Assembly: GCA_019090795.1 (NCBI GenBank)
Contig: JAHRVG010000023.1
Location: 16,178 to 80,177, forward strand
Length of the DNA stretch: 64,000 nt
Direction of reading: 5' to 3'
Source: Paracoccaceae bacterium
GTDB taxonomy: Bacteria; Pseudomonadota; Alphaproteobacteria; Rhodobacterales; Rhodobacteraceae
The position numbers were made by a program, and so were the translations under genes. Positions 12,127-49,567 of this stretch are shown here, one piece after another. Each line of letters begins with the position of its first letter. Position 1 is the stretch's first letter. Below the pieces are notes generated by a model. The model saw nothing but the letters and a program-made list of their open reading frames with translations. It did not search any database and was not told where the DNA came from.

Positions 12127-12185
12127 GGGATCAGGTTAGGGCGTGGCGGTGAAGGGGGCAAGATCGGAAGCGCGACACGCCAGAG

Positions 12186-14120: not shown

Positions 14121-14480
14121 TGCCCTACCACTCGATCAACGGCCCGGCCCCGGCGTTTTTTAAATTGCATCATTGTCAGGCACAGACATGCCCGCGTGCA
14201 TTGCGCGAAACCTTTGGGAGAGTGTAGCCCCGAATAGGAGCTAAAGGCAATTTTATTGTTTTGGCGTATAGGCAGAGGAAACTGTTACTCTTTTTCTATA
14301 GGGCGGTTTTATCGGAAACTTGTGCAGGAATAATCAACCTACCCCTTGCGGGCTTTGCCTTCACATTGAACACCTATTGGCGACAACCCAAAGATTACTC
14401 ACAACTCTAATATGTCTTCAGGTTTTCAGTCAACTTGTGATAGCCTGCATTTTAATAGTCTATCTAAGGGGAAAATTAGA

Positions 14481-18183: not shown

Positions 18184-18200
18184 GTTAATTCAATGTTAAC
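18184..18200. promoter_or_regulatory. CtrA-type binding site (GTTAA-N7-TTAAC)
   Basis: GTTAATTCAATGTTAAC, intergenic; full match to the alphaproteobacterial CtrA consensus on both strands. Confidence 0.55.
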
Positions 18201-18581
18201 TGGAAATGCTTTGGCAGCTTTCGCCGAGCCGCCTTTGTGGTGTTTGCATGGAACCCTGTCTGTAAGTTCGTCTCGCAGACCTTCAGCCACCCTGCACAGT
18301 ACGGACGGCCCAACATGCCGATACTATTTACTACAGATTAAACGACATTTACCCATAAGAACCGAAACGGGGCCTAAATGATCACTACTATGTAAACTCT
18401 CAAATCTCTCTATAACCCATGATAATCTACAATTATCGTGCTTATAGAGAAGCCGGAATAAAGCTGCGCCCAAACCTGCCGTTGCCCAGTAACCGCTTGA
18501 ACCGGAGTTGCCACCCATTTAATGTCAGGACAATTAGATAGCTCCACGCCAACCCGTTTAACAAGAGACGTTGAAATTCCG

Positions 18582-19688
18582 ATGAAAGTCATCCTGTTTA
18601 TTGGCCACCACAAGGTGGGGTCGACCTCCTTGCAGCAATTCCTGTCACAGAACTATCGGCCCTTGCTGCAGGCAGGTATCCTTTACCCCAGCGTAGACTC
18701 GCAAGGGTTTGCCCATAACATCGCCAGCACCCTTGATCCGGATTTTGACACCACCAATCTGCCAATCAACGTGCGCGAAGCCCATAACGCGCTGGCTTTC
18801 AAAATGCTGGCGGAAAACAGCAAACGTAAAGTGCCCCCTTATCACAAGAACCTGCCCTCATCGCGCCAGATGCTGGTGGGTATCAAAGAGCAGATGAGGG
18901 TTCTCAAGCCCCATACTGTTATCCTCTGCGCCGAGGTTTTCTCAAATTTTGCCGCTGCCGACCGTTCCCTGATCAAGACCCTGTTCGACATCTTTAATGG
19001 TCACGAAATTACGCTAACCTGCACCCTGCGGCGCCCGGATGAATATATCACCTCCTGGCAAGGGCAGCGGTTGAAGTTCGGCCAGCAACTGGACTCGCTG
19101 AACGGGGCAGGAATGAATTATTATTTCCCGTCGATCCATTTTGACTACAAGCGGATGCTCGCCGCCTGGATCAAGGTGTTCAAAGGGGCCAATCTGGTAC
19201 TGCGCGATTACAGCGATGTGCTGGCCTCAGGGGGATCGGTCGAGGATTTCATCACCCATAGTGGTGCGGATTTCCCCGCTGGTCTACCCCAGTCGGCCAA
19301 TTCCAACCCCTCGATTCCACGCGCCCTGATGGAAGTGGCACGCCAAGGTAATCACGTGCTGTCCGACCATGACGCCCATGAATTACGCCAATACCTGATC
19401 GGCTGTCCTGAACGGATCACCATACCCAAGAACCGCGATGTAGAAATGTTTGGCGCACAAAACCGCGATATCCTGATGGAACGCTTTGCCCCCATTCACA
19501 GCTGGCTGGGCCGGATCAACAACCAAAAGGCATTCTTTGCCGATATGGCAGACGCGGCAATACTGCGCCCCTTGCCCGAGCATGAAGCCACCCAAATCGC
19601 CCTGCCCCAGGTGCAACAGGATGCCGCGAATTTTCTGGAGAATACGACGGCCCTTGAGTTTATCACCGGGTTTGAACTGGCAAAGTAA
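18582..19688 (+). CDS. Sulfotransferase-fold (P-loop-like) protein
   Basis: LFIGHHKVGSTSLQ, ILCAEVF, TLRRPDEYITSW; start set at ATG 18582. Confidence 0.65.
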   Translation: MKVILFIGHHKVGSTSLQQFLSQNYRPLLQAGILYPSVDSQGFAHNIASTLDPDFDTTNLPINVREAHNALAFKMLAENSKRKVPPYHKNLPSSRQMLVGIKEQMRVLKPHTVILCAEVFSNFAAADRSLIKTLFDIFNGHEITLTCTLRRPDEYITSWQGQRLKFGQQLDSLNGAGMNYYFPSIHFDYKRMLAAWIKVFKGANLVLRDYSDVLASGGSVEDFITHSGADFPAGLPQSANSNPSIPRALMEVARQGNHVLSDHDAHELRQYLIGCPERITIPKNRDVEMFGAQNRDILMERFAPIHSWLGRINNQKAFFADMADAAILRPLPEHEATQIALPQVQQDAANFLENTTALEFITGFELAK

Positions 19689-19813
19689 TCCCCGAAAAGC
19701 CTGCCACGCTTGACCTTGGGTACAGCTATCCTATAGCTGGCTAGATAGATTTTCGGGCAGGGGTGCGCTTGTGCCTTTCAGGGGCAACGACCTAATACAA
19801 AGGTGTCACAACA

Positions 19814-20971
19814 ATGGTTGACTCACTCATATTCCACATTGGCGACCATAAAACAGGCACCACATCCCTGCAGCGTACACTGGCGCAGAAAGGTTGGTCT
19901 TGCGACAGCAAGAGCCTTTTCTACCCCAGCGAATTCAACCACAATCCACTGGTTGCCTGCCTTAGAAAACCAGAGCTGTTTGAATTTCGCCAGAAGCGGT
20001 TCAGCGGTCTGTGCAAGAAGATGGATAAGGTTAAAACCGGCGTCGGGGTTATCTCAGCAGAAGCACTTGAGAGCGTCGCTCCCGCTGTTCTCAAAGAGAC
20101 CCTTCAAAACTATATGCCTGAATATGCCGCAGAGGCACGTTTCATTGCCTATGTGCGCCCCCATGCGGACCGCATTGTTTCCTCTTGGGCCGAGCAGGTA
20201 AAACTGGGCTTGTTCTCCGGCTCCCTTGAGGAATTCCACGAACGTTTCCGGGCCCAAGGTCGGCTTTATTACCATGGCCGCTTTATGGAATGGCGCAGGG
20301 TTTTTGGCGACCGTTTCACCCTGCGCCCGATGATCCGCAACCAGCTGTACAAAGACTCTGTGGTGCAGGACTTTTTACATTTTGCCCTGAAAACTGATGA
20401 CTTTTCCGTGCAGGAAGTCAAAAGCAATGAATCCATGTCCTTGGAAGATATGTCATTAATGACAGTGCTTTACAAAGCTTACCGCACCCGCCACAAACAC
20501 TCGAAACTACAAGCCAAAATCGGGCGGACAATGAACCAGATTTTATCCGGTCTCCCCCCGTGTAGTAGCACAACCAAGCCAAGAATGACAAAAACCCTGA
20601 TCCCGGATGTGATTGCAACCTACCAACAAGATGCAGAGAAACTGGATGAGGATTTTTTCGACGGCACACCAATGATGGATGCCTTGCAAGCAGCACCAAA
20701 AAAGGCCGTTAATACCTCGGCCTCGATCACCCCAGAGGACTACTTCACCCCAGACGCGCTGCGTGCGGTTCAGGCTCTGGCACAGTTGGTAACCAATTTA
20801 GTCGACGCAAATAAAGAGAGCATGCAGGAATATTTTCATGACCAAGTCGCGAAAAAACCTGTCAGAGCCAACCCGAAAAAGAGAATGCACAAAGGCAAGG
20901 GTAAAGGGCGGGGTAAAACCCGCAAGACCGGCAAGCCTTTTGACGTGAATGATCTGCTGGATCTGATCTGA
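19814..20971 (+). CDS. Sulfotransferase-fold (P-loop-like) protein
   Basis: FHIGDHKTGTTSLQ, VISAEAL, AYVRPHADRIVSSW; basic C-terminal tail. Confidence 0.65.
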   Translation: MVDSLIFHIGDHKTGTTSLQRTLAQKGWSCDSKSLFYPSEFNHNPLVACLRKPELFEFRQKRFSGLCKKMDKVKTGVGVISAEALESVAPAVLKETLQNYMPEYAAEARFIAYVRPHADRIVSSWAEQVKLGLFSGSLEEFHERFRAQGRLYYHGRFMEWRRVFGDRFTLRPMIRNQLYKDSVVQDFLHFALKTDDFSVQEVKSNESMSLEDMSLMTVLYKAYRTRHKHSKLQAKIGRTMNQILSGLPPCSSTTKPRMTKTLIPDVIATYQQDAEKLDEDFFDGTPMMDALQAAPKKAVNTSASITPEDYFTPDALRAVQALAQLVTNLVDANKESMQEYFHDQVAKKPVRANPKKRMHKGKGKGRGKTRKTGKPFDVNDLLDLI

Positions 20972-21044
20972 CCTCAACGACAAACCACCAACAAGAACAG
21001 GGTCTTGCAGTTAATCGCCAAGATTTTCAAAGGAATAAAGCCAA

Positions 21045-22823
21045 ATGATTACGCTGCAAAATATTGTCTTTCCCGAACAGACCATCTGTACCGAGCAGGA
21101 TCTCTATTTTCACCTGCATGGTCTGTCATCTTTGCGCGGTTCGGATAATACCATCCACATGCGCACCGGCGATCAGGTGCAATTCGATACCTATTTCAAT
21201 GCGCTCAGCATCGGTAAATGGCATGAAAACTGCACACTTAAGGGCCTTTACCTCAACCTGCGCGGACAGGGGCGGTTCGAGCTGCTGGTATGGCATGCGA
21301 TCCCGGATCGCTCTTGGGAAAAGATATGTTCCGAAGTCATCGAACTGAAACCGGAAACCCCTTTTCGTGCGGACCTGTCACATTATTCGCAAAATGCCAC
21401 AAAGGGTCTGATATTCTTTGAACTGCGCGCCCTCACACGGGCGGTATTTGCCGGCGGCGAATTTCAGACGGAAACAAAGCTGGACACTTGGCCCAAACTG
21501 GCGGTCAGCATCACCACTTTCAAACGCGAGGAAGCGGTAAAGAGTACCGTTATGCGCTTGCAAAACTTCTTACAGAATTTTGAATACAAAGAAAATATCC
21601 ATATCTTCATGGTGGATAACGGCCAAAGCGTTAACACCGATCCGGCGTCTAACCTGACCTACATTCCCAACGATAATCTGGGCGGTGCCGGAGGCTTTGC
21701 CCGTGGATTGCAAGAGGCCGAATCCGCCGGCTACAGCCATGTCCTGTTCACCGATGACGATGCCTCTTTTCCGATGGAGAGCCTGTACCGAACCTATACA
21801 TTTCTTGCGCTGGCCAAAGACAGTCGCACCACTGTGGCCGGTGCGATGATCAATAATACTACAAAATGGGCGATGTGGGAAAACGGCGCAATTTTCGATC
21901 GCAAATGTATGCCACTGTCCTCGGGGATGGATTTGCGCAACCGGGATGGTGTTTACCATCTGGAACTGGACTCTGCCAAACTCGACAATCCCAAACTCTA
22001 CGGCGGCTGGTGGTATTTCGCATTCCCAGTGAAACATGCCAAATATCACCCCTACCCGTTCTTTGTACGCGGCGATGATGTCAGCTTTTCCATTGCCAAT
22101 GACTTCAAGATCAATCTCCTAAATGGTGTCTTGTCATTTCAGGATGATTTCACCGAAAAAGAGTCGCCATTGACATGGTATCTTGATCTGCGCAGTCATA
22201 TGGCACACCACCTTTCGCTTGAGAGCATGGAAGTCGGATCCCATCAGGTGGCCAAAATCGCGATCTGGTTCTTTCTGCGCAATTTCATAAAATTCCAGTA
22301 CGAGACCATGGAAACTGTGCTGCTGGCCTGGGAAGACGTGATGCGCGGCCCTCAGTTTTTCCTCGACAACAAGGACATGGCAGAGCGGCGTGCTCAAATC
22401 AAAGAATTGGTCCATGACGAATTGTGGCAACCGGTTGATGCAAACGAGTTGGAAGAAAAAGTCAGCTTTGACCCAAACTCAAACAAGTTTCGCCGCCTAC
22501 TGTACCGGTTTGGCCTTAATGGTCACTTGATTCCGTTTTATAAATTCTGGGCCAACCGGATCATTGTTCCGCCACAAGACCGCGGTAATCTGAATATTTG
22601 CTGGGGTACTTGCGAGATTACCTATCTCAATTCGGACCGCACCAAAGGCTATACTACCCGCCTGAACCGCCTGCGCGGGCTGCGTCTGTTATTTCGCGCC
22701 GCACGTTATTACGTCAAATTCCGTATGATGTACCCCAGCCTGCGCAAGGAATACCGTGACAGCTATCCTGAAATCGCGTCCAAAGACTATTGGCAGGATG
22801 TTTATAAAGTCACTAAAACCTAA
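21045..22823 (+). CDS. Galactofuranosyltransferase-like GT2 (GlfT2-like)
   Basis: AVSITTFKRE, NLGGAGGFARG, VLFTDDD, YGGWWYFAF, PFFVRGDDVSFS; N-terminal beta-sandwich-like region; adjacent to glf. Confidence 0.8.
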   Translation: MITLQNIVFPEQTICTEQDLYFHLHGLSSLRGSDNTIHMRTGDQVQFDTYFNALSIGKWHENCTLKGLYLNLRGQGRFELLVWHAIPDRSWEKICSEVIELKPETPFRADLSHYSQNATKGLIFFELRALTRAVFAGGEFQTETKLDTWPKLAVSITTFKREEAVKSTVMRLQNFLQNFEYKENIHIFMVDNGQSVNTDPASNLTYIPNDNLGGAGGFARGLQEAESAGYSHVLFTDDDASFPMESLYRTYTFLALAKDSRTTVAGAMINNTTKWAMWENGAIFDRKCMPLSSGMDLRNRDGVYHLELDSAKLDNPKLYGGWWYFAFPVKHAKYHPYPFFVRGDDVSFSIANDFKINLLNGVLSFQDDFTEKESPLTWYLDLRSHMAHHLSLESMEVGSHQVAKIAIWFFLRNFIKFQYETMETVLLAWEDVMRGPQFFLDNKDMAERRAQIKELVHDELWQPVDANELEEKVSFDPNSNKFRRLLYRFGLNGHLIPFYKFWANRIIVPPQDRGNLNICWGTCEITYLNSDRTKGYTTRLNRLRGLRLLFRAARYYVKFRMMYPSLRKEYRDSYPEIASKDYWQDVYKVTKT

Positions 22824-22833
22824 GCATACGGCC

Positions 22834-23832
22834 TTAGCGGCTCTTCAGCGCGTCTACCAATGCCAGTAAATCGTCGTGTTTCATATCAAGTCGATGAAAA
22901 AACCCGTCTTTGACCGCCCGCCACAACAGGCGGTAGTAAAGTCCCTTATCCTGGCCATAATGACGCCCGTTTAGCAGCCATTTTGTCAGGAACACCGGCG
23001 CAATCAGCGGGAACCAGCGGCCAGATGCTTCGCGGTAAGTGATCAACCCGTTACGGTAATTATAGTAAATCTTCCAGTAAGGCGTGTAGGTTTTACGTTC
23101 GCTAAATGTCGAACAGGCATGTTCAAAGCGGATTTGCGGGGCAAAACCGATGTCCAGCCCCGCCTGACGTGCATGCAACGAATACAGCACATCATCGCCG
23201 TAAATAAACAACTCACCGATGGGTGTGCCAATGCTCTCGATCACCTTGCGCGAGATGAACATGCCAACAAAGGACGCCGCATCAATAGGCAGGGTCATTT
23301 GCGCCCCATATGCCTGATCGGAAACATGGAACCCTTTGCGCCCCTGCCCCAGAAGCGTGCCCAACAGGGTCTTGAGAAACTCTGTCCCATGCCAGAACGG
23401 ATTACGCGAGGGCCGGTTCATTTCGCAGATATGTCCGTCGGGATAATAGACTGCAGCGGCCAGAACATCCCAGCCCTCGCGCGCCACATGGGAAAAATCA
23501 ACAAAGGCACCGGAAAAGGGGCGCGCATCGTCATCCATCACCACTACCCAGTCGGGATCATAGGCTTCCATTGCGACATGGATTCCCAGCTCGAACCCGC
23601 CTGCGCCCCCAAGGTTTTCCTTTGGGAACACCGGCAATAGACGCGGATCGCTTTGCGCTGACAGCCATTCCCTTGTGCCATCACTCGAGCCGTTATCAAC
23701 CACCACCACCGCCTCGCAAGGCTCGTTCAGCAGTCGTGCAAGGGTCTCTTGCACCTCCGACAGGCGATTATAAGTGGCCACAACGGCGACAAGGCGCTGT
23801 TCAATCAACAACTGTGCCCCATCCCCCCTCAT
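22834..23832 (-). CDS. GT2 glycosyltransferase (GlfT1/rhamnosyltransferase-like)
   Basis: AVVATYNR, VVDNGSSDGT, NLGGAGGF, WVVVMDDDA, SFVGMFI, FIYGDDVLYS, YYNYRN; co-transcribed with glf. Confidence 0.85.
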   Translation of the reverse strand: MRGDGAQLLIEQRLVAVVATYNRLSEVQETLARLLNEPCEAVVVVDNGSSDGTREWLSAQSDPRLLPVFPKENLGGAGGFELGIHVAMEAYDPDWVVVMDDDARPFSGAFVDFSHVAREGWDVLAAAVYYPDGHICEMNRPSRNPFWHGTEFLKTLLGTLLGQGRKGFHVSDQAYGAQMTLPIDAASFVGMFISRKVIESIGTPIGELFIYGDDVLYSLHARQAGLDIGFAPQIRFEHACSTFSERKTYTPYWKIYYNYRNGLITYREASGRWFPLIAPVFLTKWLLNGRHYGQDKGLYYRLLWRAVKDGFFHRLDMKHDDLLALVDALKSR

Positions 23833-23835
23833 CGC

Positions 23836-25011
<1,176 letters not shown>

Positions 25012-25266
25012 TTACCCTCTCAACCGTGGGCTCGTATCTCTCAAATCTGTCCTCTCTGGGCAGACACTCTCTTGCTGACCCGTTTCATATTGCCCCCTTG
25101 TGGTCAAGTTAAAGCGTTAACTACAGCCTAAGCTAAGGTCTAAAGCGATTGGGATATAAAGAACGGTTGTTGCGCAAACCAATCCAGCACAGGACGCTGT
25201 GTTCAGCACTTGTTGAGACCCACTGGATAGTTTCACCGCAAATCCAGATCCTTCAGGAGCACCTTC

Positions 25267-26643
25267 ATGCCCGATCAGTCGCCCGTTCTTGGCCTGCCCT
25301 ATATTCTGCCTGCACAAGCCCAGAAACACGTTACCCACAACATGGCAATCCAGCAGCTTGATACGTTGGTGCAGCTGAGTGTGGCCAGCGCCAGCGTCAG
25401 TGCACCCCCTTCATCACCTGCCACAGGGGATCGCTATATCGTCGCGACCGGAGCCACACTGGATTGGTTGGGGCAAGAATACTCGATTGCAACGTGGCAA
25501 GGCAGTGGCTGGGAATTCACCCCGCCACAGGCAGGCTGGCAGGCACATGTGCTGGATCAGAATGCCAACATTGTGTTTGACGGCAGTATCTGGGGCGGCG
25601 AGACACTTGATCTGCAAAATCTGGAGGGCATCGGTGTTAATACAACCTCCGACACCACCAACAAGCTGGCAATCGCTGCCGATGCGACACTGCTCAGCCA
25701 TGACGGGGGCGGCCATCAGTTGAAAATCAACAAAGCAGCGAGCAGTGACACTGCGTCCCTGTTATTTCAGGATAACTGGTCGGGACGCGCAGAAATGGGG
25801 GTGGCAGGGGATAATGATTTTCGTGTGAAAGTCAGTGCGGATGGCAGCAGTTGGCAAGAGGCCCTTAATATCGACAAGGCCACCGGAGCGGTGCGCTTTC
25901 TGGAAACCACCGGCCTTGCCGCGCCCAATCTGATCCGCAACCCTGCTTTCTACGCCGCACAGCGGGGTACCGGCCCGTTTACCAGTTCCGGATATACGCT
26001 TGACGGTTTCGAGATTTCCGCTGGCACGACGACACCTTCGATCACGCGCGAGACATCTGATCCGGCAAGCGCCGAGGCGGCCCAGAACGAATATTTTCTG
26101 CGCTATGACAACACCGGCCAGGCAACCACCTATCAGGCGATCAAGATCAGGGTGAACGACCTAACCCAGCTTTCTGGAACCGATCTGGTTCTGTCATTTG
26201 AAGCGCGCTGTGATACGGCTCAAACTTTGCCCCGAGTATATTACTATCAGGAGTTCGGCTCATCAGGCTCACCTCATGCCTATGCTGAATTCCAACGTTC
26301 CATCCCCATAGGCACCACATGGAGCAGTATCAGCACAACAGCAAACATAGCCTCCCTGTCAGGCCAAACACTGGGGGCAGGGCATCACCTGCTTATTTAT
26401 ATTTCCTTGTCAGTTGGCGCGCCCGGATTATCGGGCATTTTTGATATTCGCCGCCTCAAGCTGGAGCGCGGCACGGTTTCAACACCGTTTTTACCCTCAG
26501 ACCCTGCAAGGGATCTGGCGCAAAGCCGATACTATTTCCAGAGATGGCATAACTCACAGAACATCAATGATTTGGCACACCAGATGCGCGTAATGCCCTC
26601 TTCCAGCGGTGCCGGGCCCTACGATTACAGCGCAGAGCTATAG
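25267..26643 (+). CDS. DUF2793-domain protein, GTA/phage tail-fibre-like, with C-terminal carbohydrate-binding-type module
   Basis: LGLPYILPAQAQKHVTHN...GDRYIV...GWEFTPPQAGW (DUF2793); SGRAEMGVAGDNDFRVKVSADG; C-terminal NLIRNPAF-x-AQRGT ... KLERGTVSTPF ... RYYFQR resembling phage fibre modules. Confidence 0.8.
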   Translation: MPDQSPVLGLPYILPAQAQKHVTHNMAIQQLDTLVQLSVASASVSAPPSSPATGDRYIVATGATLDWLGQEYSIATWQGSGWEFTPPQAGWQAHVLDQNANIVFDGSIWGGETLDLQNLEGIGVNTTSDTTNKLAIAADATLLSHDGGGHQLKINKAASSDTASLLFQDNWSGRAEMGVAGDNDFRVKVSADGSSWQEALNIDKATGAVRFLETTGLAAPNLIRNPAFYAAQRGTGPFTSSGYTLDGFEISAGTTTPSITRETSDPASAEAAQNEYFLRYDNTGQATTYQAIKIRVNDLTQLSGTDLVLSFEARCDTAQTLPRVYYYQEFGSSGSPHAYAEFQRSIPIGTTWSSISTTANIASLSGQTLGAGHHLLIYISLSVGAPGLSGIFDIRRLKLERGTVSTPFLPSDPARDLAQSRYYFQRWHNSQNINDLAHQMRVMPSSSGAGPYDYSAEL

Positions 26644-26652
26644 GAACTCAAC

Positions 26653-26823
26653 ATGGAACAGAATTTGGAACCCTCCCCGCCCGAGCCTGTCATCAATAAC
26701 GTAAGCAGGATAACCGATCACTTATTTCAGGCACAGATTGACGGTATTACCCACTTGATACCAATGGTCCCCAGCAACAGAGAATGGGAGTTGATACGGG
26801 ACTATATTGACGACATTGCCTAG
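26653..26823 (+). CDS. 56-aa small ORF (not in ORF track), tail-fibre assembly chaperone-like
   Basis: Translated by hand: MEQNLEPSPPEPVINNVSRITDHLFQAQIDGITHLIPMVPSNREWELIRDYIDDIA*. AGGA lies 8 nt upstream, 9 nt after the DUF2793 stop, and the ORF fills the gap to the parB stop exactly. Confidence 0.6.
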   Translation: MEQNLEPSPPEPVINNVSRITDHLFQAQIDGITHLIPMVPSNREWELIRDYIDDIA

Positions 26824-26825
26824 GC

Positions 26826-27836
26826 TTATTCTTTGGCGAGCATCGTTTTGAGGCGTGTCAGCAGATCAGGGGAAACCTTTTCCCCGGTGATCACAATCTT
26901 ATTTCCCTTGAGCATAATTTTCAGCCCCTCAGTCAAATGTTCCGCACGCGGAACATTTGATCCCTGTGTTGGTTTGGCTTGTTTGCCCAGACGGATTAAC
27001 CCATTTAAGGCTGTCATCTCATCGGCAGCGGATGCAAACTGCCCCTGCTCCAGACCCTTGGCAAAATTCCCACGCGCCTCTGGGTATTCACGCAAAACCT
27101 CGACCAACGACAGGCCAAGCCGTTCTGGGATTGCGGCAGGGTATTGCAAGACACCGTCAAGCGCATGGTACAGAGTAATAAAGGAGCGGATCCGTGAACG
27201 TTTAGCGCGACTGGCAGAGGCAAAGAGACTCAGCAATGCCAGCTTCTCTGTTTCAAAGACACCCCGTTTGGTAGCCTCGGCAGCAACCCTTGCCCGTTCA
27301 TAATAGCTCAGACCAACCCGAACTTCATTTTCCTCGACCATAGAGACATAGGCCGAGGCTGCATCCTTAGGATTGCGCAGCAGCGCCAGCACCGTACTAA
27401 ACTGCGCATCGCCGGTTTTATCGTGCAGTTTCTCCAGGGCCAGCAAACGGCGCCAGCCGGAGATCAGGCCGTATTTTGGCGCGGCCCCCGCAATATCCGC
27501 AAGTGCCGTCACCTCAATCGGGGTACGCTGGCCATGGGTCTCTATGCTTTGGGCCAGTGCGGCCAACTCATCGGCATCCGTGTTGACCCGATCCCGCGCC
27601 AAATGATCCGGCGCAATATCTCCCAGCGGGATTTTCAGAACAATACGCCCCTCTGCGCGAGTGCGGGCCACGTCATCAACCAGTTCACGCAGGGCGTTCT
27701 GCGCAGCACTCTCGCCAGCAACCTGGGCAATCGGCGGGGCACCAAACATTGATTTAGCCTCTGGTGCGACTGCAGTACGTCCCGTGCCTTCCCCTAAAAA
27801 CTCCGGCTTTGGTCCAGATAGTCTCTTGCGCGCCAT
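26826..27836 (-). CDS. parB: Plasmid partitioning protein ParB
   Basis: ParB N domain (GQRTPIEV, YGLISGWRRL), MVEENEVRVGLSYYER; downstream of parA. Confidence 0.92.
   Translation of the reverse strand: MARKRLSGPKPEFLGEGTGRTAVAPEAKSMFGAPPIAQVAGESAAQNALRELVDDVARTRAEGRIVLKIPLGDIAPDHLARDRVNTDADELAALAQSIETHGQRTPIEVTALADIAGAAPKYGLISGWRRLLALEKLHDKTGDAQFSTVLALLRNPKDAASAYVSMVEENEVRVGLSYYERARVAAEATKRGVFETEKLALLSLFASASRAKRSRIRSFITLYHALDGVLQYPAAIPERLGLSLVEVLREYPEARGNFAKGLEQGQFASAADEMTALNGLIRLGKQAKPTQGSNVPRAEHLTEGLKIMLKGNKIVITGEKVSPDLLTRLKTMLAKE
26933..26960. promoter_or_regulatory. parS-like palindrome inside parB
   Basis: TCAAATGTTCCGC-AC-GCGGAACATTTGA, a perfect 13-bp inverted repeat whose core resembles parS (TGTTxC..GxAACA). 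Confidence 0.65.
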
Positions 27837-27906: not shown

Positions 27907-29289
27907 TTAAAGTAAACTTGCCTGTTCTTCCAACTCATCCCGCCGCCAGCTACCAATCAACAACCGTTTGAACATTGCATAGGTCATATCGAAAGTTTCG
28001 CGCCCCCGGGCATAAGTCTCGCGATTGAAATCGCGGTAATCTGCCTCGTAAATACCATTGACTTGTTCACCTGCCTGCCCGATCAGCGCTGTGTAATCCT
28101 GCCGGAACGGTGACATAAACCGCCCCAAGTAAGCCTGCATCAGTCCGGCCAGATCACCTTGCTGGGCCCCATCAAAACGGGTGATGACCGTGCGAACCGC
28201 GTCCCATTCAAAATGGACTTCCGGACGCCCAAGGGCGCGGGCTGCCATATTCTCGCCCTCCTCGATTGACTGGAAAGTGGAATGCAGCATATCGAAAAAC
28301 CGCCCGGTTGAGTCGAACTCCAGAAAACTGGCTCCAAGCGGCACCAGCAGGATATCTGCCGCAGACAGCCCGTTGATCGTCAGATAGCCAAGGGCAGGGG
28401 GGGTGTCGAGGAACACCACATCATAAGCATCAAGGACACCGTCCCGCTCCAGTGCCTCTGTGAGGGCGTCCCAGAGCTTCCAGCCGCGCACCCCCATGCG
28501 CCAGACCGGGATCTGGAATTCAGCCCAATACAGATTGAGCTGTGCCCCGATCAGATCAATGTTGGGCCAGTGGGTTTTCTGGATCACATCCTGTGCGGTA
28601 ATTCCCAAAGCATCGTTTAAGGTCTCGTCAAGGGGCTGGGGCGCCTCACCACGATCTGCACGGCGCCTGTTTTCGATCTGCAAGGCAGTGGCGTAATCAC
28701 GTGCAATCAGCGGAAACACCGTGTTCCATTCATCCTCAACCTGTCCGCCAAAAATCGAGGTCATGGAGCCCTGACTGTCGAGATCAATCACCAAAACCTT
28801 ATAGCCGTCCAAAGCGGCTGACATTGCCAGATGCGCGGCAGTTGAGGTTTTACCAACCCCGCCTTTGAAATTTGCCACGGCGGTGATTTTGGCTTTCATT
28901 CCTTTGGGGCGATAAGGGGCGTATTCTTTGGCTTTGGAACCTTCACTGGCAAAATGCCCGCGCAAACGTAATACTTCATCAAGGGTGAACCATTTGGCTC
29001 CGCCTTCAGTTTCGGACCGGCCTTGGGGCAGGTCCGGATTGGCCTTGAGTACACGGCGAAAATGGGGTGTTGCCACAGGGATCAGATACTTGGTAATTTC
29101 CCAAGTAGAAAACATCCGCAAGACTTTATGTCCGTCCTTGAGGTGCCCACGTGATGCAAGGTCTTCCCGGCCACTGGTGCAAACCTGCGCTACTTGGGCA
29201 AAATCGGATGTTGAAACGGGGTTCCCCAGATCAGCCAAAGCGGCATCGGGTGAAATGTTGAAATACGGTGGGAGGTTGCTCTGCCCCAT
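27907..29289 (-). CDS. parA: Plasmid partitioning ATPase ParA
   Basis: Deviant Walker A NFKGGVGKTST, LVIDLDSQGS, VFLDTPPALG; N-terminal extension; start set at ATG 29289. Confidence 0.95.
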   Translation of the reverse strand: MGQSNLPPYFNISPDAALADLGNPVSTSDFAQVAQVCTSGREDLASRGHLKDGHKVLRMFSTWEITKYLIPVATPHFRRVLKANPDLPQGRSETEGGAKWFTLDEVLRLRGHFASEGSKAKEYAPYRPKGMKAKITAVANFKGGVGKTSTAAHLAMSAALDGYKVLVIDLDSQGSMTSIFGGQVEDEWNTVFPLIARDYATALQIENRRRADRGEAPQPLDETLNDALGITAQDVIQKTHWPNIDLIGAQLNLYWAEFQIPVWRMGVRGWKLWDALTEALERDGVLDAYDVVFLDTPPALGYLTINGLSAADILLVPLGASFLEFDSTGRFFDMLHSTFQSIEEGENMAARALGRPEVHFEWDAVRTVITRFDGAQQGDLAGLMQAYLGRFMSPFRQDYTALIGQAGEQVNGIYEADYRDFNRETYARGRETFDMTYAMFKRLLIGSWRRDELEEQASLL

Positions 29290-29533
29290 GGGTGCGCCTT
29301 TATGTGCTGCCTTTTGTGCCGTATACCACAAAAGGCAGCATTTGAAAGTATTATCGACATAATGACGGCTTTCCTAAGCAAATACAGCGGTTTCTGTATT
29401 GAATTATGCTTGAAAGGAAGGTGCTGATATTTTTTGGTCTGTTAATTTTCTGTTATTTGTACGTTACGGGTTTTCTGAGAAACAATAATCGTTTGTTTCT
29501 TTTGGATTTTCCAGCCTTTTTGAAGGTTAGCAT

Positions 29534-29725: not shown

Positions 29726-30727
29726 ATGACAACAGCAAGGCTGTTACCCGACCGGTATCCAACCCGGGATTTCTTTGTGTGCGACGTGTTTGACGCGTTG
29801 CCCAAAGATGATCTTGCGTCCATGGAGCATCCGATATTCTCGCTTTCAACGCGCCCGGACCGGCGGATTTTGACGTATGAACATGGCGACAATCGGATTG
29901 AAATAACTCCCTCGGTCAAGGGGTTGGCGACGCTGCATGACAAAGATATTCTGATCTATTGCATTAGCCAGTTGATGGCGGCGATCAATATGGGGCGACC
30001 AGTTTCAAAGATGTTACAGCTCAAGGCGCATGATCTGCTGGTGGCAACCAATCGGGAAACCTCGGGGGATGGCTACAAGCGTTTACGTGAGGCTTTTGAG
30101 CGCCTCGCGGGCACCCGGATCACCACTAATATTGTTACCGGAGATGTGGAAACCACCAGCGGGTTTGGCCTGATTGAAAGCTGGGAGATTAAGCGCCGCT
30201 CCGGGCGGGGCCGGATGATTTCGGTTTCGGTTAAATTGTCGGACTGGCTGTTTCGCGCGGTGCTGTCGAAATCTGTGCTGACGCTCAGCCGTGATTATTT
30301 CCGTCTGCGCAAACCGCTGGAACGCCGGATTTATGAAATTTCCCGTAAGCACTGTGGGCGGCAACGGGAATGGCGCGTTGGTTTGCAAACCTTGCTAAAG
30401 AAATCCGGCTCTGCCAGCCCGCGGCGCGTCTTTCGCAAAATGATCCGCGATATGATCAAGGCAGACCATTTGCCCGATTACCAACTGTCCGAGGAACCCG
30501 GAGACATCATCCGCGTTACTCCGCGCGCGGTGGTGATCGAGGCGGGTGCGCGTCCGGTGCTGAAAGCCGAGACCCTGGAGCAGGGTCGCGGGCTGGCGCC
30601 GGATTTGGATATTTACGGGCTGGAATCAGAATGGGTGAACTGGTGGGCGCAAACTGGGCGCCCAAGGCTGCGGGCACCAGATGCGGCGTTTCTAGGCTGG
30701 TTGCGCGAACGGGTGGCGCGGGGGTAG
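29726..30727 (+). CDS. repA: Replication initiator RepA (Rhodobacterales RepA-type plasmid, RPA family)
   Basis: FFVCDVFDALPKDDLASMEHPIFSLS, DKDILIYCISQL, YFRLRKPLERRIYEISRKHCG; divergent from parAB. Confidence 0.93.
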   Translation: MTTARLLPDRYPTRDFFVCDVFDALPKDDLASMEHPIFSLSTRPDRRILTYEHGDNRIEITPSVKGLATLHDKDILIYCISQLMAAINMGRPVSKMLQLKAHDLLVATNRETSGDGYKRLREAFERLAGTRITTNIVTGDVETTSGFGLIESWEIKRRSGRGRMISVSVKLSDWLFRAVLSKSVLTLSRDYFRLRKPLERRIYEISRKHCGRQREWRVGLQTLLKKSGSASPRRVFRKMIRDMIKADHLPDYQLSEEPGDIIRVTPRAVVIEAGARPVLKAETLEQGRGLAPDLDIYGLESEWVNWWAQTGRPRLRAPDAAFLGWLRERVARG

Positions 30728-30875: not shown

Positions 30876-31795
30876 ATGGCGGTGATTGCCTATTCGGGTA
30901 CAGCGGATAAAATTCTGGCAGGGACCAGTGGCAAGGACAGATATGTTATTGATCTGGCCTTGTTGGCAGACCACCGCACCCGGCTGAAAGATGCGGGCGG
31001 CAGTGATACGCTCCGGATCATTGACACAGACGGGGACTGGGCAACCCGGTCATTTATCAACACTGGCGACAAGCTGCTCTGGAAAGGCGGTGACGGGGGC
31101 AGGATTGTAGTCCCGCTGCTCGACGGGTTGCCGGAGATAGAGTTTCTGGAGTGGAGTACCGGCGCTGGCAGTGCGGTGCCGCGCCTGCAACTGACCACTG
31201 ACCTGAAACCCGAAAGCGGCGGAAATATCGCGATCATTGGCAGTCGCGGGGCTGACCAGATCATTGTGCCGGATGCGGGGGGGCGCGCCGCTGGGCGCAG
31301 CGAGGTGCATGCAGGGGGGGTGCGGATACGGTGACAGCCTCGGGAACAGAACTAACGGTGGTGTATGGCGGCAGCGGGGGCGATCTGATTATTACTTCAG
31401 GGCCCGCAGCAGGTGAATTCCACGGCGGGCGTCATGACGATGTGTTGTGGGGCTGCAAGGGGAATGACAGTCTTTACGGGGACCGGGGCAAGGATGATCT
31501 TTTCGGGGCTGCGGGCAAGGATATTCTCAAGGGAGGCAAGGGGAGGGACACACTTAATGGCGGGGCTGGTGCGGATATATTCGCCTTCAAAGGCACCAGA
31601 GACGAGGGTGTGGACACTGTGTCTGACTTTCAGGACGGGGTGGATGTCTTGCAAATCAGGGGGGGCAGTTTTGCCGGGCTGGAGATCAGTCAGAGCGGGG
31701 CAGATACTCGTATCACCCTGAGTGGCGGCACGGTGATTGTGTTGCTGGAGATTGACCAAAGCCTGATTGATGGCGCGGATTTTGATTTCGTATAG
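30876..31795 (+). pseudogene. RTX-repeat secreted protein split by a 1-nt deletion in a G7 run (31314-31320)
   Basis: ORFs 30876-31334 and 31331-31795 join into EVHAGGGADTVTASG if G7 becomes G8; the 920-nt span becomes 921 nt (306 aa); N-terminus paralogous to 31863 gene; RTX repeats and T1SS-type C-terminus. Confidence 0.75.
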
Positions 31796-31862
31796 ACAGT
31801 GTTGGCACTTGTTTGAGCACCATAATTATGTGACCCTTTGGAATATTTAACGGAGATAGCAA

Positions 31863-33314
31863 ATGGCGATTTTAACATATAGCGGTGCGTTGGATACGAC
31901 CCTGACCGGCACCACCAGCAGTGACTTTTACATTTTTGATCCTGCCCTTCTGGGCACCAATAGCACCACTATTTCCGATGGTGGCGGCGCTGACAAGTTG
32001 GTAATTTATGACTACATTGATGTGCGTGATGCCGGTGAATTTGAATACACTGGCAGCGCGCTGATCTGGCGCAACTATGAGGGAGGCGAGATCGTCATTC
32101 TTCTGGATGGGGATGGCAATCCGGTGATCGAGACGCTGGAGTGGCGTGCCGCCCCGAGCGATGGGACCTATCGCTATAGTCTCGAGATCACCACTGATTT
32201 GATGCCCAGCTCTGGCGGCTCTCTGGCGATTGCGGGCACTAGCGGGGATGATGTGATTGTGGGGCGTGATCACGGGGTTGATACTTTGGGGTGGAACGAG
32301 ATTTATGCCAATGTGGGCGATGACATCGTAACAACCTCGGCCAGCCAGTATTCGTATGTTTACGGCGGTGATGGCAATGACACAATCACCGCTGGTGGCG
32401 CGGCGGGCAGTGATCAGCGGGGCGATGGCGGCAATGACACCCTGACCGGTGGAGTGGCGGCTGATGCGCTGGCTGGCGGCACAGGCAAAGATACGCTTCA
32501 TGGTGGTGATGGTGATGACTCCCTGACGGGCGATGATGGCAAAGATGTGATCTATGACGGCTCGGGTGATGATACCGCGAATGGCGGCAAGGGGGATGAC
32601 ACCTTCTACATGGGCACCGGTGCAGACACGATTGAGGGCGGCGCGGGCAATGATACGCTGGTGGTGGATGTCAGCACCTCTGCGCGGGGCGATTACACAG
32701 TATTCTGGGACATGCTCACCGGTGCCCATGGGGCCAAGGAATTCACCACTACTCGTGATGTTTTTACCGGTATCGAAAACTACACCCTGATCGGTGAGGT
32801 TGATACAGATATTACCGGGGATGATAAGGACAGTTATTTTCTCACCGGTGGGGGCTGGGACACGCTGAGCGGGAGCGCGGGTAAAGATACGCTCGACAGT
32901 GGTGATGGGAATGACATCCTCAAGGGGGGCGGGGGCGACGATGTTCTTACGGCCGGCAAAGGTGGGGATGAGCTGGAGGGCGGTAAAGGTAACGACAAGC
33001 TGAAAGGCGGTAAAGGCAATGACGATCTTGAGGGGGGCAAAGGTAACGACAAGCTGACCGGGGGCGCGGGCAAAGACATATTTGTGTTCAAAAAGGCCGG
33101 TGGCAAAGACACCATCAAGGATTTTCAGGACGATAAAGACACCATTCAGCTGGATGACGCGCTTTGGAATGCTACCTTCAACAAGCAGAAAGTTATCAAC
33201 AAATTCGCCGAAGTGGTGGGTGATGATATTATTTTTGATTTTGGAAAACATGAGTTGAAAATCAAAGGCTTCAGTGATCTTACTGAACTGAAAGATGATT
33301 TCGATATCATTTAG
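31863..33314 (+). CDS. RTX (hemolysin-type Ca-binding) repeat protein, T1SS-type substrate
   Basis: Many GGxGxD nonapeptides, no signal peptide, C-terminal FVF..GKDTIKDFQ...DII; N-terminal domain unassigned. Confidence 0.85.
   Translation: MAILTYSGALDTTLTGTTSSDFYIFDPALLGTNSTTISDGGGADKLVIYDYIDVRDAGEFEYTGSALIWRNYEGGEIVILLDGDGNPVIETLEWRAAPSDGTYRYSLEITTDLMPSSGGSLAIAGTSGDDVIVGRDHGVDTLGWNEIYANVGDDIVTTSASQYSYVYGGDGNDTITAGGAAGSDQRGDGGNDTLTGGVAADALAGGTGKDTLHGGDGDDSLTGDDGKDVIYDGSGDDTANGGKGDDTFYMGTGADTIEGGAGNDTLVVDVSTSARGDYTVFWDMLTGAHGAKEFTTTRDVFTGIENYTLIGEVDTDITGDDKDSYFLTGGGWDTLSGSAGKDTLDSGDGNDILKGGGGDDVLTAGKGGDELEGGKGNDKLKGGKGNDDLEGGKGNDKLTGGAGKDIFVFKKAGGKDTIKDFQDDKDTIQLDDALWNATFNKQKVINKFAEVVGDDIIFDFGKHELKIKGFSDLTELKDDFDII
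33101..33299 (+). repeat. About 200-bp direct repeat, copy 1 (T1SS-signal-coding region)
   Basis: About 11 mismatches in 199 bp versus 34691-34889 by manual alignment. Confidence 0.9.
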
Positions 33315-33425
33315 CGTTCCGGGGCTGTTAAAAAACCGCAAAATCTGCTATCCATTTATTGTAATTTGGAGGCTTGCTTCCTGATGCGCCTTAAAGTGTT
33401 TTGTAATAATTCCAGAACCTCGCGC

Positions 33426-33447
33426 TGTTTCAGGCCAGCCTGAAACA
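33426..33447. promoter_or_regulatory. Perfect palindrome immediately upstream of serralysin-like gene (putative operator)
   Basis: TGTTTCAGGC-CA-GCCTGAAACA, 10-bp arms, 17 nt before ATG 33465. Confidence 0.4.
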
Positions 33448-33464
33448 TTGTGGGAAAAAATGAT

Positions 33465-34904
33465 ATGGCTGGAACCGGGCACGGAGTTGATTTTGAGGTA
33501 ACGGCGTCAGGTGTGCAGATTATCGATGCAGTGCTGGCGGGGTCGGTTTGGACCGATACAACAGTTACCTTCAGTTTTCCCGACAGCGGCAGCGATTACA
33601 TCGATTATGACACCAGCGAGCCGGACGGGGTAATCCCGCTGACTGCGCTGATGAAATCTGCGGCCCGATTTGTGCTCGATAAAGACGATGGCAACAGCGC
33701 CAACGACGGCTTTTCGATTGAGGGGTTTACCGCGCTCACCGTTGATTTTGTCACCAGCACAGGGGCGCATTTGCGTCTTGCCCAGACCAGCGAAGATCCG
33801 TTCGGTTATAATACTGCCTGGGGCGGGAACCCCTGGTGGAACCCCGAGGCGGGTGATGTCTGGTTTCATACTGAGGTCTATGATTACACCAACCCGAAAC
33901 CGGGGGCGCATAACTGGCGTACGCATTTGCACGAACTGGGCCATGCGATGGGGTTGAAACACGGACACGCTGACGAGGGTACCGGTTTTGGCACCTTGCC
34001 CGAAGGTATGGACAGCTATGAATATTCGGTGATGACCTATCGCAGCCACCCTGGGGCCGATCTGGCCACCCATTATGGCGAGTGGTCAGCCCCGCAGAGC
34101 TATATGATCGCTGATATTGCTGCCTTGCAATATCTTTACGGGGCCGACTATGACACCAACGCGGGCAACACTACTTATACTTGGACACCGGGCAGCGCGG
34201 ATACACAGGTCGACGGGGCGGTGGCGATTAGCCCGGGCGGAGATGTGATCCTCGCCACCATCTGGGATGGCGGCGGCATTGATACCTATGATCTGAGCGC
34301 CTATTCCAGCGCCTTGATGCTGGATCTGCGCCCCGGCGAACACTCGCGCTTTTCCGAAGCTCAGCGGGCTTGGCTTGGCGATGATTACTACGCGCGCGGC
34401 AATATCTTTAACGCATTGCTGTTTGAGGGTGATAAACGCTCCCTGATTGAGAATGCTACCGGTGGTAGCGGGAATGACAAGATCACCGGCAATGAAGCGG
34501 CAAATAAACTGCTTGGCGGTGCAGGGCGGGATCTGTTGAAAGGGCTGGAGGGCAAAGACCTGCTCAAAGGCGGCGGTGGCAAAGATAAGTTGCTTGGCGG
34601 CTCTGGCACCGATCAGCTGGATGGCGGCAAAGGCCGCGACCAGATGACGGGCGGTGGTGGCAAAGACAAGTTTGTGTTCAAAAAAGGCTATGGCAAAGAC
34701 ACCATCAAGGATTTTCAGGACGATAAAGACACCATTCAGCTGGATGACGCGCTCTGGAACGGCAGTTTCAACAAGCAGAAAGTCATCAACAAATTCGCCG
34801 AGGTGGTGGGTGATGATATTATTTTTGATTTTGGAAAACATGAGTTGAAAATCAAAAGCTTCAGTGATCTTACTGAACTAAAGGATGATCTGGATTTTAT
34901 CTGA
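33465..34904 (+). CDS. Serralysin-like M10B metalloprotease with RTX repeats
   Basis: HELGHAMGLKH zinc motif, Met-turn YSVMTY, DIAALQYLYG, TIWDGGGIDT, IENATGGSGND, RTX tail. Confidence 0.92.
   Translation: MAGTGHGVDFEVTASGVQIIDAVLAGSVWTDTTVTFSFPDSGSDYIDYDTSEPDGVIPLTALMKSAARFVLDKDDGNSANDGFSIEGFTALTVDFVTSTGAHLRLAQTSEDPFGYNTAWGGNPWWNPEAGDVWFHTEVYDYTNPKPGAHNWRTHLHELGHAMGLKHGHADEGTGFGTLPEGMDSYEYSVMTYRSHPGADLATHYGEWSAPQSYMIADIAALQYLYGADYDTNAGNTTYTWTPGSADTQVDGAVAISPGGDVILATIWDGGGIDTYDLSAYSSALMLDLRPGEHSRFSEAQRAWLGDDYYARGNIFNALLFEGDKRSLIENATGGSGNDKITGNEAANKLLGGAGRDLLKGLEGKDLLKGGGGKDKLLGGSGTDQLDGGKGRDQMTGGGGKDKFVFKKGYGKDTIKDFQDDKDTIQLDDALWNGSFNKQKVINKFAEVVGDDIIFDFGKHELKIKSFSDLTELKDDLDFI
34691..34889 (+). 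repeat. About 200-bp direct repeat, copy 2
   Basis: Offset 1590 bp from copy 1. Confidence 0.9.
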
Positions 34905-35084
34905 ACCTGCCTTTCTGCGGGTTGCTGTGTTGCCTTGGGCATGGCCAAGGGGCAACACCTCGGGAAGTGTGACAATTTTTGCGACTAAATTTTAGTGTTT
35001 CTCAAGGATTTATGGTAAGTTCTTAACTAAAGTGGGCAAAAAATGACCCGCATGAGCGGCAAGTATCAGAGGCAGTGACATATT

Positions 35085-36749: not shown

Positions 36750-36804
36750 TACAAAACCCATGAGACTGTGATGTTCTACACTGTCCACCCCAGCGGGTAA
36801 CGGC

Positions 36805-36833
36805 TCAGGGCGTTCTATTTTGAAACGCCCTGA
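36805..36833. terminator. Hairpin downstream of RTX protease (terminator or REP-like)
   Basis: TCAGGGCGTT-N9-AACGCCCTGA, 10-bp arms. Confidence 0.5.
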
Positions 36834-37005
36834 TTAGCATGTGCATCTTTAGGACCTAGTTTATTCTCAACGTTACCTTCACGGGTCCGCACACTGATGA
36901 TTTCCTTGACTGAGATCAATTCAATCGAGCGTGAAACGTTCTATATGAACTCGGCTCATGGCCTCACTGACCCTAACTTTAACAAGCGGAGTAAACATTC
37001 CAAAA

Positions 37006-38469: not shown

Positions 38470-38479
38470 GAGCTGCCCC

Positions 38480-38528
38480 TAAAGCATTCCGATTTAACGC
38501 TGAGACACCCAGTGGATCGAAATGCTAG
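38480..38528. repeat. Short intergenic inverted-repeat element (TAAAGC... family)
   Basis: AGCATTCCGAT ... ATCGAAATGCT imperfect terminal arms about 50 bp apart. Confidence 0.4.
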
Positions 38529-38864
38529 CATTATCAGTACCTTGAAGTGCTGTCAGGGTTCTAACGTGTTTCACGTTTAAACCGAATTGCTTTAGCTATA
38601 GCGTTGGTGTCTGCCGGAGAGTGTGATCAGCTACTCGCGCCGTCGCGCGCCTTCCTAAAGCGTTGCTTGATCTTGAAATTCCAATCAGCCCACAGGCATG
38701 CGGTAAAGCAGAGGCAGGCCCAATTTGATAAAAGTTGATCAAGATCACAGTATCTGGAATTCGAATCAATTAACCTGTTGGGTGACCGAAGGAAATTCTC
38801 CCTCGGAGATGATGGTTTGCAAGAACCGGTGCATCCATGGCCGTGTTCACGGCTGTGATAAACC

Positions 38865-38915
38865 TAGAGCGTTTTACGTTTTCCGGGAAACTCGGGTGAA
38901 ACGGATAACGCCTTA
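38865..38915. repeat. Short intergenic inverted-repeat element (TAGAGCG... family)
   Basis: TAGAGCGTTTTACGTTT ... AAACGGATAACGCCTTA imperfect arms; abuts the RBS of the next gene. Confidence 0.45.
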
Positions 38916-38927
38916 ATGGAGGAAAAA

Positions 38928-49449: not shown

Positions 49450-49476
49450 GAGACTCGTTCCGAGCGTTCACCATAT

Positions 49477-49492: not shown

Positions 49493-49567
49493 GGTAAATG
49501 TAAGGAGTTTGTTAATGCTTTTAGGCATCTATTTTGCCTGGAAGCGCTTTCGGGTTATCATGATTCG

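Follow-up and report, generated by a model that had tools for sequence, protein, structure and literature searches.

A plasmid-borne DUF2793 tail fibre with a phage-type tip and a small partner gene: a candidate gene transfer agent fibre allele beside polysaccharide genes

Why would a plasmid carry a gene for a tail fibre, and no other part of the particle to which a fibre belongs, next to genes for surface polysaccharides? This question is raised by a 64-kb (64,000-nt) stretch of a Paracoccaceae contig (JAHRVG010000023.1; the whole stretch is hereafter called the window), in which a fibre gene of 458 amino acids (aa; 25267–26643, + strand), with an AGGAG ribosome-binding site (RBS) at 25255–25259 ahead of its start, is followed by a small open reading frame (ORF) of 56 aa. 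In Rhodobacter capsulatus, the DUF2793 protein Rcc00171 is the tail fibre of RcGTA, the gene transfer agent (GTA) of that species, and is essential for transfer (PMC5026251); it binds capsule (Alim 2023, PMC10218006). Its gene lies away from the main GTA cluster, beside extracellular polysaccharide (EPS) genes, and plasmid-borne homologues were found in 7 of 21 Rhodobacterales genomes (Hynes 2016, PMC5026251). Outside R. capsulatus, the factors deciding which cells in the ocean receive GTA DNA are largely unknown. An original prediction, made from the letters of the window alone, had cited the extra-cluster position of the RcGTA fibre and the dependence of uptake on capsule, both of which agree with the published record, and had proposed that the replicon supplies a capsule type together with a GTA fibre variant. 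Our analysis largely confirmed the underlying observation and partly supported the interpretation. The reading that we favour, at a probability of roughly 0.6, is that the plasmid fibre is a GTA fibre allele that acts in trans, with a lectin-type tip and a helper protein specific to that tip.

A megatron-type anchor joined to a phage-type tip

The N-terminal ~205 residues of the fibre (25267–25881, + strand) form a putative baseplate-anchoring rod and knob that is common to all plasmid-borne DUF2793 proteins. This region contains DUF2793 (Pfam PF10983) at aa 24–109, with an E-value of 1.3e-28 and 99 bits against a cut-off of 27 bits, and matches PHROGs 13925, 15388 and 25093. Residues 5–113 also match the fibre of roseophage vB_DshS-R4C (gp017; PDB 8GTC chain S, 8gtc_S), whose N-terminal ~110 residues align with the window protein at E = 7e-11. 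In R4C, three claw-like trimers of this fibre sit on the megatron protein, and the baseplate is a homologue of the RcGTA one (PMC10276861; PMC7296036). Unlike the window fibre, gp017 is a 230-aa protein encoded in a complete phage genome and has no tip resembling a carbohydrate-binding module (CBM). Judged by these matches, the window protein is a predicted tail fibre of the DUF2793 (Rcc00171) family for megatron-type baseplates, and an entry annotated as 'DUF2793 domain-containing protein' on a Rhodobacterales plasmid can be read as a tail fibre.

The anchor was compared among 12 plasmid-borne DUF2793 proteins from eleven genera, the window protein included. Over the first ~205 aa, the window protein is 49–57% identical to the 11 others, which are 48–72% identical among themselves, and the closest phage homologues of this region reach 43–46%, i.e. 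no more than 46%. By these values, the plasmid copies form a coherent, selected group whose members are nearer to each other than to any phage copy. The dN/dS of the window fibre relative to its sister plasmid is 0.16. Beyond residue ~205, identity to the window protein drops to background. This places a junction near residues 205–215, and from aa 215 to 453 the fibre matches PHROG 4492, 'tail fiber protein' (E = 1.1e-30). The original prediction had described a DUF2793 N-terminus fused to a phage-fibre-like C-terminus, and both halves of that description held.

The C-terminal ~250 residues (25882–26643, + strand) correspond to a phage fibre tip. Using tblastn, 353 phage records matched this module, 315 of them over at least 80% of its length; they include Xanthomonas phages Xp10, OP1 and Xop411, many Vibrio phages, Clostridium phage HM T and Rhizobium phages. 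No plasmid in PLSDB matched the tip, and it showed no similarity to the tips of the 11 other plasmid DUF2793 proteins. When the tip or the small ORF was used by itself in word-indexed protein searches, almost nothing matched; relatives were reached by a profile search for the tip and by an exhaustive HMMER scan for the small ORF. The profile search with the tip returned more than 6,167 proteins at E < 1e-5, and some of its relatives reach the Pfam CBM_4_9 model. Other proteins carry this tip behind T7-tail-fibre, Mtd_N or depolymerase N-termini, so that it behaves as a shuffled module; the window tip class is paired with DUF2793 only in its own syntenic plasmid lineage. On the basis of these matches, we consider the tip to be of phage origin.

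An AlphaFold2 model of the tip (115 homologues, monomer) is a beta-sandwich with a predicted local distance difference test score (pLDDT) of 79 and a predicted TM-score (pTM) of 0.77; the model is monomeric and the protein itself is probably trimeric. Searched with Foldseek, the model matched CBM22, CBM4, CBM11 and CBM61 modules at E-values of 1.5e-7 to 1e-5 and a probability of 1.0. It also matched fibres of OP1h, BcepSaruman, BcepNazgul, S-N03, cyanophages and T7-like phages, at E-values down to 1e-17 and query TM-scores (TMq) of up to 0.79, the last reached with the OP1h fibre. The tip would thus be a CBM4/22-like beta-sandwich and a putative receptor-binding domain, and its fold class suggests that it binds sugar.

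Two known systems each resemble one part of this protein. Rcc00171, compared here by its published description, shares with the window fibre the DUF2793 N-terminus, the solitary position beside polysaccharide genes and a presumed sugar-binding C-terminal domain. It differs in length (371 aa versus 458 aa) and in ending in a C-terminal 'foot', where the window fibre has an Xp10-type CBM-like tip; unlike rcc00171, the window gene is plasmid-borne and has a small accessory gene next to it. The p26 proteins of Xp10, OP1 and Xop411 carry the same tip as the window fibre (23–25% identity over 93–95%, E-values down to 4e-8) and are also 458 aa long, with a different N-terminal anchor.

A small conserved gene behind the fibre

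The small accessory gene (26653–26823, + strand) starts 9 nt past the TAG of the fibre gene, as had been predicted, and ends two bases short of the stop codon of a ParB-like gene that runs towards it; gene callers report it in public assemblies. At the junction, TAG-GAACTCAAC-ATG (26641–26655, + strand), the stop codon of the fibre gene overlaps the small-ORF RBS, and both ORFs lie in one frame. Amber (TAG) read-through would lengthen the fibre by 59 residues. Because the TAG overlaps the RBS, translational coupling is the simpler reading of this junction.

We compared five variants of the plasmid lineage, namely the window, its sister plasmid L006, and L016, L028 and L029. The order glf, fibre (458 aa), small ORF (56–58 aa) and parB is present in all five, while fibre identity to the window falls to 60–70% across them. 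TAG, 9 nt and ATG recur in five of five despite differing spacer sequence, so that start, RBS and spacing are all conserved. The small ORF ranges from 39 to 89% identity among the variants around an invariant NREWELIR, within a retained core of A.IDG(I/V)...IP....NREWELIR. Its dN/dS relative to the sister plasmid is 0.23 in frame, compared to 0.5–1.06 in the other five frames. These comparisons argue that the small ORF is a real, conserved gene. They also bear on the idea that fibre and small ORF are non-functional relics hitch-hiking beside the partition genes, which we regard as highly improbable. A frameshift that splits the fibre gene in the distant relative L016 (8616–9991) speaks for decay, but it is probably a sequencing or assembly error and not the mark of a pseudogene, since that contig has a coverage of only 2.58x; the four other variants encode intact 458-aa fibres. 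The low dN/dS of both genes and the conserved start, RBS and spacing likewise argue against relics.

The original prediction had likened the IDG..IP..NREW pattern of the small ORF to that of small proteins encoded downstream of phage fibre genes. When 1.84 billion representatives were scanned exhaustively with HMMER, the only matches were members of the lineage and three repeat proteins (P0003, P0004 and P0006), which were judged to be similar at the level of the motif only and were rejected as homologues. One of them, P0004, is a metagenomic, phage-tail-like protein of 1679 aa with dozens of STDGITWTQGTMPSNKEWSSVCYGN repeats that resemble the small-ORF core IDGITHLIPMVPSNREWELI (26734–26802). 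We then searched phage loci directly, using a profile built from the five small ORFs against 6,716 six-frame segments of 80 IMG/VR loci encoding the same tip. In 73 of these 80 viral loci a same-strand ORF starts right after the fibre gene, and the top five profile matches among all segments (E-values of 3e-4 to 0.06) were in every case the immediately downstream ORF, which bears out the resemblance. In the reciprocal search, with a profile made from the phage modules only, the small ORF scored best of 1,226 window segments (E = 0.03).

The motif common to the small ORF and the N-terminal ~45 residues of the phage proteins is (I/V)DG....(I/V)P....NR.(Y/W). Long phage versions, of 110–165 aa, continue into Phage_tail_APC (PF16778) or DUF4376 and match PHROGs named tail fibre assembly or tail assembly chaperone; PF16778 was found in the relatives L096, L033 and L051 (E-values of 3e-23 to 2e-11) and DUF4376 in L102 and L046. 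Stand-alone short versions of 58–71 aa occur in viral contigs L062, L080, L081 and L094. The phage chaperones with Phage_tail_APC or DUF4376 lie directly after fibres with the same tip, as the window ORF does, but the window ORF ends after the N-terminal module: it has no Pfam or PHROG match and neither a Phage_tail_APC nor a DUF4376 domain. Thus, of the predicted 'chaperone-like' character, the likeness to the N-terminal module of phage assembly proteins stood and the chaperone domain itself was lacking. Overall, the evidence for homology between the small ORF and this module is moderate. In Xp10, OP1 and Xop411, a small ORF (p27) likewise follows the fibre gene, after 2 nt as compared to 9 nt in the window, and p27 gave no significant match to the small-ORF profile.

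A small ORF of this kind is missing behind the fibre in the 11 other plasmid loci that were scanned and in the Fulvimarina locus L017. The only other scanned plasmid locus with a convincing ORF downstream of its fibre is L023 (Antarctobacter heliothermus pSMS3-2), where a hypothetical ORF of 105 aa (7059–7376), unrelated to the 56-aa ORF, lies 12 nt past a fibre with a tip of another class (class E, see below). The absence of the small ORF at other plasmid fibres fits a joint acquisition of the tip and its partner. The small protein may act as a helper for the tip.

Plasmid setting and the particle that the fibre would serve

The two genes lie between a replication module and a polysaccharide locus. 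Downstream, and convergent with the small ORF, are the ParB-like gene (26826–27836, − strand; Pfam ParB_N) and ParA (27907–29331, − strand; Pfam AAA_31/CbiA), followed by the RepA initiator (29726–30727, + strand; Pfam RPA, PF10134, E = 9e-99). Upstream and divergent is glf, which encodes a UDP-galactopyranose mutase (23836–24990, − strand; Pfam GLF, E = 1.3e-76), and beyond it are a GT2 glycosyltransferase gene (22834–23832, − strand; Pfam GT2 domain) and a gene for a GlfT2-like galactofuranosyltransferase (21045–22823, + strand; Pfam GlfT2 domain). These galactofuranose-type genes (21045–24990) adjoin the fibre in all five members of the plasmid lineage. The window also holds a kps-like capsule export set (59826–63875), consisting of an ABC-2 permease, a 430-aa protein, an ABC ATPase (222 aa) and a Poly_export/SLBB protein, as recognised by Pfam ABC2_membrane and Poly_export and by ABC_tran on the 222-aa product. 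Glycosyltransferases, a UDP-glucose dehydrogenase and a sulfotransferase are encoded elsewhere in the 64 kb. The plasmid location and the neighbouring polysaccharide and capsule genes that had been proposed for this locus are therefore present.

The parA gene of the window has 77% nucleotide identity to parA of the 65–70-kb plasmids of Phaeobacter, and the nearest relatives of the plasmid backbone are Phaeobacter and Leisingera plasmids. With RepA, ParAB and polysaccharide clusters, the replicon fits the Roseobacter RepA-type 'biofilm plasmid'. The annotated large ORFs of the 64-kb window did not include an rfbABCD rhamnose operon, and the plasmid extends beyond the window (82-kb contig).

Scanned against Pfam and PHROG, the large ORFs of the window and the flanking contigs contained no virion or prophage module, in agreement with the claim that no other phage genes are present. 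The single exception is a gene at 47672–48829 (− strand), which encodes 385 aa with a signal-peptide-like start and DGxVGIGTxxPxxxLHV repeats and has weak PHROG tail-fibre matches (phrog_9942, E = 3e-7); its product, a second fibre-like protein, is probably secreted or surface-bound. As the plasmid has no baseplate, tail or head genes, the fibre must act in trans.

In the reading that we favour, the locus would be a two-gene receptor-binding cassette on a RepA/ParAB roseobacter-type plasmid. Gene 1 would encode a trimeric tail fibre whose ~205-residue rod and knob docks on the fibre-binding domain of the megatron baseplate protein, and whose last ~250 residues form a carbohydrate-binding beta-sandwich tip. 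An ancestor would have acquired this tip from a phage together with gene 2, whose 56-aa product, translationally coupled to gene 1 and corresponding to the tip-proximal N-terminal module of phage fibre-assembly proteins, probably aids folding or stays bound to the tip. The conserved anchor is expected to fit no baseplates but those of the megatron type, which are found both in RcGTA-like GTAs and in a group of siphophages of Rhodobacterales. The most likely partner would be the RcGTA-like GTA that most Rhodobacterales encode on the chromosome, and with such a partner the fibre would determine which surface polysaccharide the particles recognise. We infer use by a GTA, and not by a phage, for several reasons: the RcGTA fibre gene is likewise solitary beside EPS genes, and its product is essential for transfer and binds capsule; plasmid-borne homologues occur in a third of the genomes studied (PMC5026251, PMC10218006); and the plasmid copies are coherent, selected and nearer to each other than to any phage copy.

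Alternatively, the fibre could serve a true phage with an RcGTA-like baseplate, of the R4C, RDJL or RcKemmy type, either as the leftover of a decayed prophage or as a gene with which the plasmid redirects a resident or incoming phage. Among phages, 147 records contain DUF2793 fibres at 30–46% identity, and many of these records come from phages of Rhodobacter, Roseobacter, Dinoroseobacter and Paracoccus; the tip and small ORF are demonstrably phage-derived. We nevertheless consider service to a phage improbable. Apart from the weak exception at 47672–48829, no other virion or prophage gene was detected in the 64 kb and its flanks, the gene is under purifying selection in five diverged plasmid variants, and at least 154 plasmids, nearly all of them from Rhodobacterales, have homologues at a site of this kind (N-terminal half, tblastn). 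The composition of the cassette is also fully ameliorated: GC content and GC content at third codon positions (GC3) of the fibre, the tip and the small ORF equal those of neighbouring genes and give no signal of recent acquisition, from which the cassette appears to be long-resident. Selection, spread and amelioration together make a pattern unlike that of a decaying prophage remnant.

The linkage to surface polymers extends across plasmids. At 16 of 17 inspected plasmid loci (a raw count that carries no base rate), a gene for polysaccharide synthesis, modification or export lies immediately beside the fibre; the 17 include the window, and the seventeenth, from Hirschia, is cut by the end of its record. 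Four of the 17 directly adjoin RepA/ParAB. At least five unrelated tip classes occur among the twelve compared proteins. The class-B tip is Peptidase_G2, an intramolecular chaperone domain, and is exemplified by NC_018288.1 36594–37835 (the 65-kb biofilm plasmid of P. inhibens DSM 17395) and by L001 8977–10245. All 58 Phaeobacter plasmid matches are class-B DUF2793 plus Peptidase_G2 fibres, with at least 90% identity over the full length, and lie among rhamnose and GDP-fucose genes. These 65–70-kb biofilm plasmids (NC_018288.1) share with the window the RepA/ParAB type, an anchor of ~51–53% identity and a polysaccharide context, but their fibre ends in Peptidase_G2 (E = 1e-29; intramolecular chaperone and autoproteolysis) and, unlike the window fibre, has no separate small ORF.

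Another possibility is that the product is a free trimeric lectin that acts independently of any particle, as a component of the biofilm or matrix or as a mask on the cell's own polysaccharide receptor that excludes GTAs or phages. Added purified Rcc00171 blocks RcGTA transfer in a dose-dependent manner (PMC5026251), the gene sits on 'biofilm plasmid'-type replicons among genes for surface polymers, adhesins and secretion, and the tip fold is CBM-like. Against this, the N-terminus, which starts MPDQSPVLGLPYILPAQAQKH, has no signal peptide or export signal, and the baseplate-docking N-terminal region is the part best conserved across plasmids, which would be hard to explain were docking irrelevant. 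We thus regard a free lectin as quite improbable.

Several observations weigh against a GTA fibre allele and temper our preference. Many Rhodobacterales phages also have DUF2793 fibres on megatron baseplates and, since such fibres occur in both GTAs and phages, the anchor alone cannot separate the two uses. The end of the tip is shortened and altered (26560–26643, fibre aa ~432–458, + strand). Compared with more than 100 phage homologues, it retains MRxxP and the terminal SAEL but lacks ~50 residues between them, a segment that p26 of Xp10, OP1 and Xop411 also has, and the near-invariant Cys of the family is replaced by Ser (CQRY to SRYY; SRYYFQ); the trimmed tip may behave unlike phage tips. 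Homology of the small ORF to phage proteins consists of a ~25-residue motif with low scores (10–19 bits). The window sequence was found only in metagenome runs and is absent from 185,579 species-representative genomes: four oil-metagenome runs carry 91–100% of its sequence words, the oil-metagenome samples with the plasmid include SAMN15950866, no RNA run carries the locus, and the sole match in the genome-collection scan was a 40%-identical N-terminus from Fulvimarina. Finally, no regulatory tie to the control of GTA genes was evident, the upstream CtrA-like site being at chance level (see below).

The ligand of the fibre might be the plasmid's own galactofuranose-containing or sulfated polymer, a speculative suggestion that is plausible by linkage alone and that we hold to be doubtful. 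Co-variation of tips with polysaccharide loci, which had been proposed as a check, was examined in a 12-locus pilot. Six of seven class-E tips adjoin manC, in line with co-variation, but very similar manC-fcl-gmd neighbourhoods accompany a class-B tip in Phaeobacter P128 and a class-E tip in Ruegeria B32, such that tip class and neighbouring sugar genes co-vary only loosely. The more general proposal, that biofilm plasmids carry a matched pair, surface-polymer genes and a GTA fibre allele with that polymer as the ligand of its swappable tip, is in our estimate unlikely. Were it true, the chromosomal GTA of a carrier would deliver DNA preferentially to cells with the same plasmid, and the plasmid would thereby encode a kin label, or 'greenbeard', for gene transfer; the window allele would combine a galactofuranose or sulfated capsule with a CBM-type tip and its helper gene, and plasmids of Phaeobacter, Leisingera, Sulfitobacter and Cereibacter would carry other alleles.

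The basic idea is already published: Hynes 2016 (PMC5026251) described plasmid-borne homologues, EPS adjacency and the fast evolution and phage-mediated exchange of rcc00171, with an occasional Peptidase_G2 partner. It has also been argued in theory that GTA benefits must be confined to kin, with receptor specificity as a means (Kogay 2024, PMC10883770). The biofilm-plasmid paper (Michael 2016, PMC5030684) does not mention GTA, phage or tail. TspA, a detachable RcGTA tailspike (bioRxiv 10.64898/2026.07.19.739414), was set aside; it is rcc02623, a different protein that is irrelevant to DUF2793. In the literature searched, we did not find the near-universal adjacency of plasmid DUF2793 and polysaccharide genes, biofilm plasmids included, or the modular tip classes, the chimera of anchor and CBM tip, and the small accessory gene with its phage relatives. 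Seen with its wider pattern, this locus shows that the one GTA-type receptor-binding gene lying outside the conserved cluster is routinely found on plasmids, physically tied to surface-polysaccharide genes, and appears to swap its tip with phages as a cassette. If the host GTA uses the fibre, plasmids would set GTA tropism, and their gain or loss would rewire networks of gene flow. For annotation, the 56–58-aa ORF after a DUF2793 fibre of this lineage is best treated as a real gene.

Upstream motifs and other surface genes

The promoter of the R. capsulatus fibre gene is reported to have CtrA half-sites and to depend on GafA and CtrA~P (PMC9638019). TTAA motifs also occur in the promoter of the window fibre gene. 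A CtrA-like site with one mismatch, TTAA-N7-CTAA (25117–25131, + strand), lies upstream of the window fibre as had been predicted, but it is probably not meaningful. The window contains 15 one-mismatch sites of this kind, with 13.9 ± 3.6 expected; the second half of the site differs in the sister plasmid; and neither the three more distant members of the lineage nor 10 of the 11 other plasmid loci have the site. With its frequency at chance and its sequence not conserved, CtrA regulation was rejected as evidence.

A heptamer, GTTGCGC (25169–25175, + strand), lies 98 nt upstream of the fibre start and is a candidate promoter or regulatory element. It occurs at −89 to −104 in 6 of 14 independent plasmid DUF2793 loci (the window, L001, L022, L024, L025 and L027), compared to 0.08 expected from shuffles, and is lacking in the distant lineage members L016, L028 and L029. 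It may represent a shared promoter or regulator element.

Other CtrA-type sites were noted in the window. A perfect TTAA-N7-TTAA (18185–18199) and two one-mismatch sites (18327–18352) lie in the gap before the operon 18522–22823, which ends in the GlfT2-like gene; the perfect box at 18185 is not conserved in L006. Three overlapping CtrA-type sites, 11 nt apart and one of them perfect (TTAACCTGAAATTAA), lie at 49467–49503, just upstream of a 166-aa ORF (48949–49449, − strand) that precedes the fibre-like gene at 47672–48829.

The remainder of the window is rich in secretion and surface-protein genes. Type II secretion genes are present in two blocks (9476–14120 and 52476–58668), with a prepilin peptidase on the same plasmid, and further surface or secretion genes lie at 14412–18119, 31331–40475 and 41870–44908. 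RTX, cadherin, vWA and FG-GAP surface proteins are also encoded; among the products are a 1,235-aa RTX/cadherin/Big_9 adhesin, several RTX/serralysin-like proteins, an integrin-beta-like vWA protein and a 1,012-aa FG-GAP/ASPIC protein. Together, the secretion, adhesin and surface-protein genes make this a surface-remodelling replicon.

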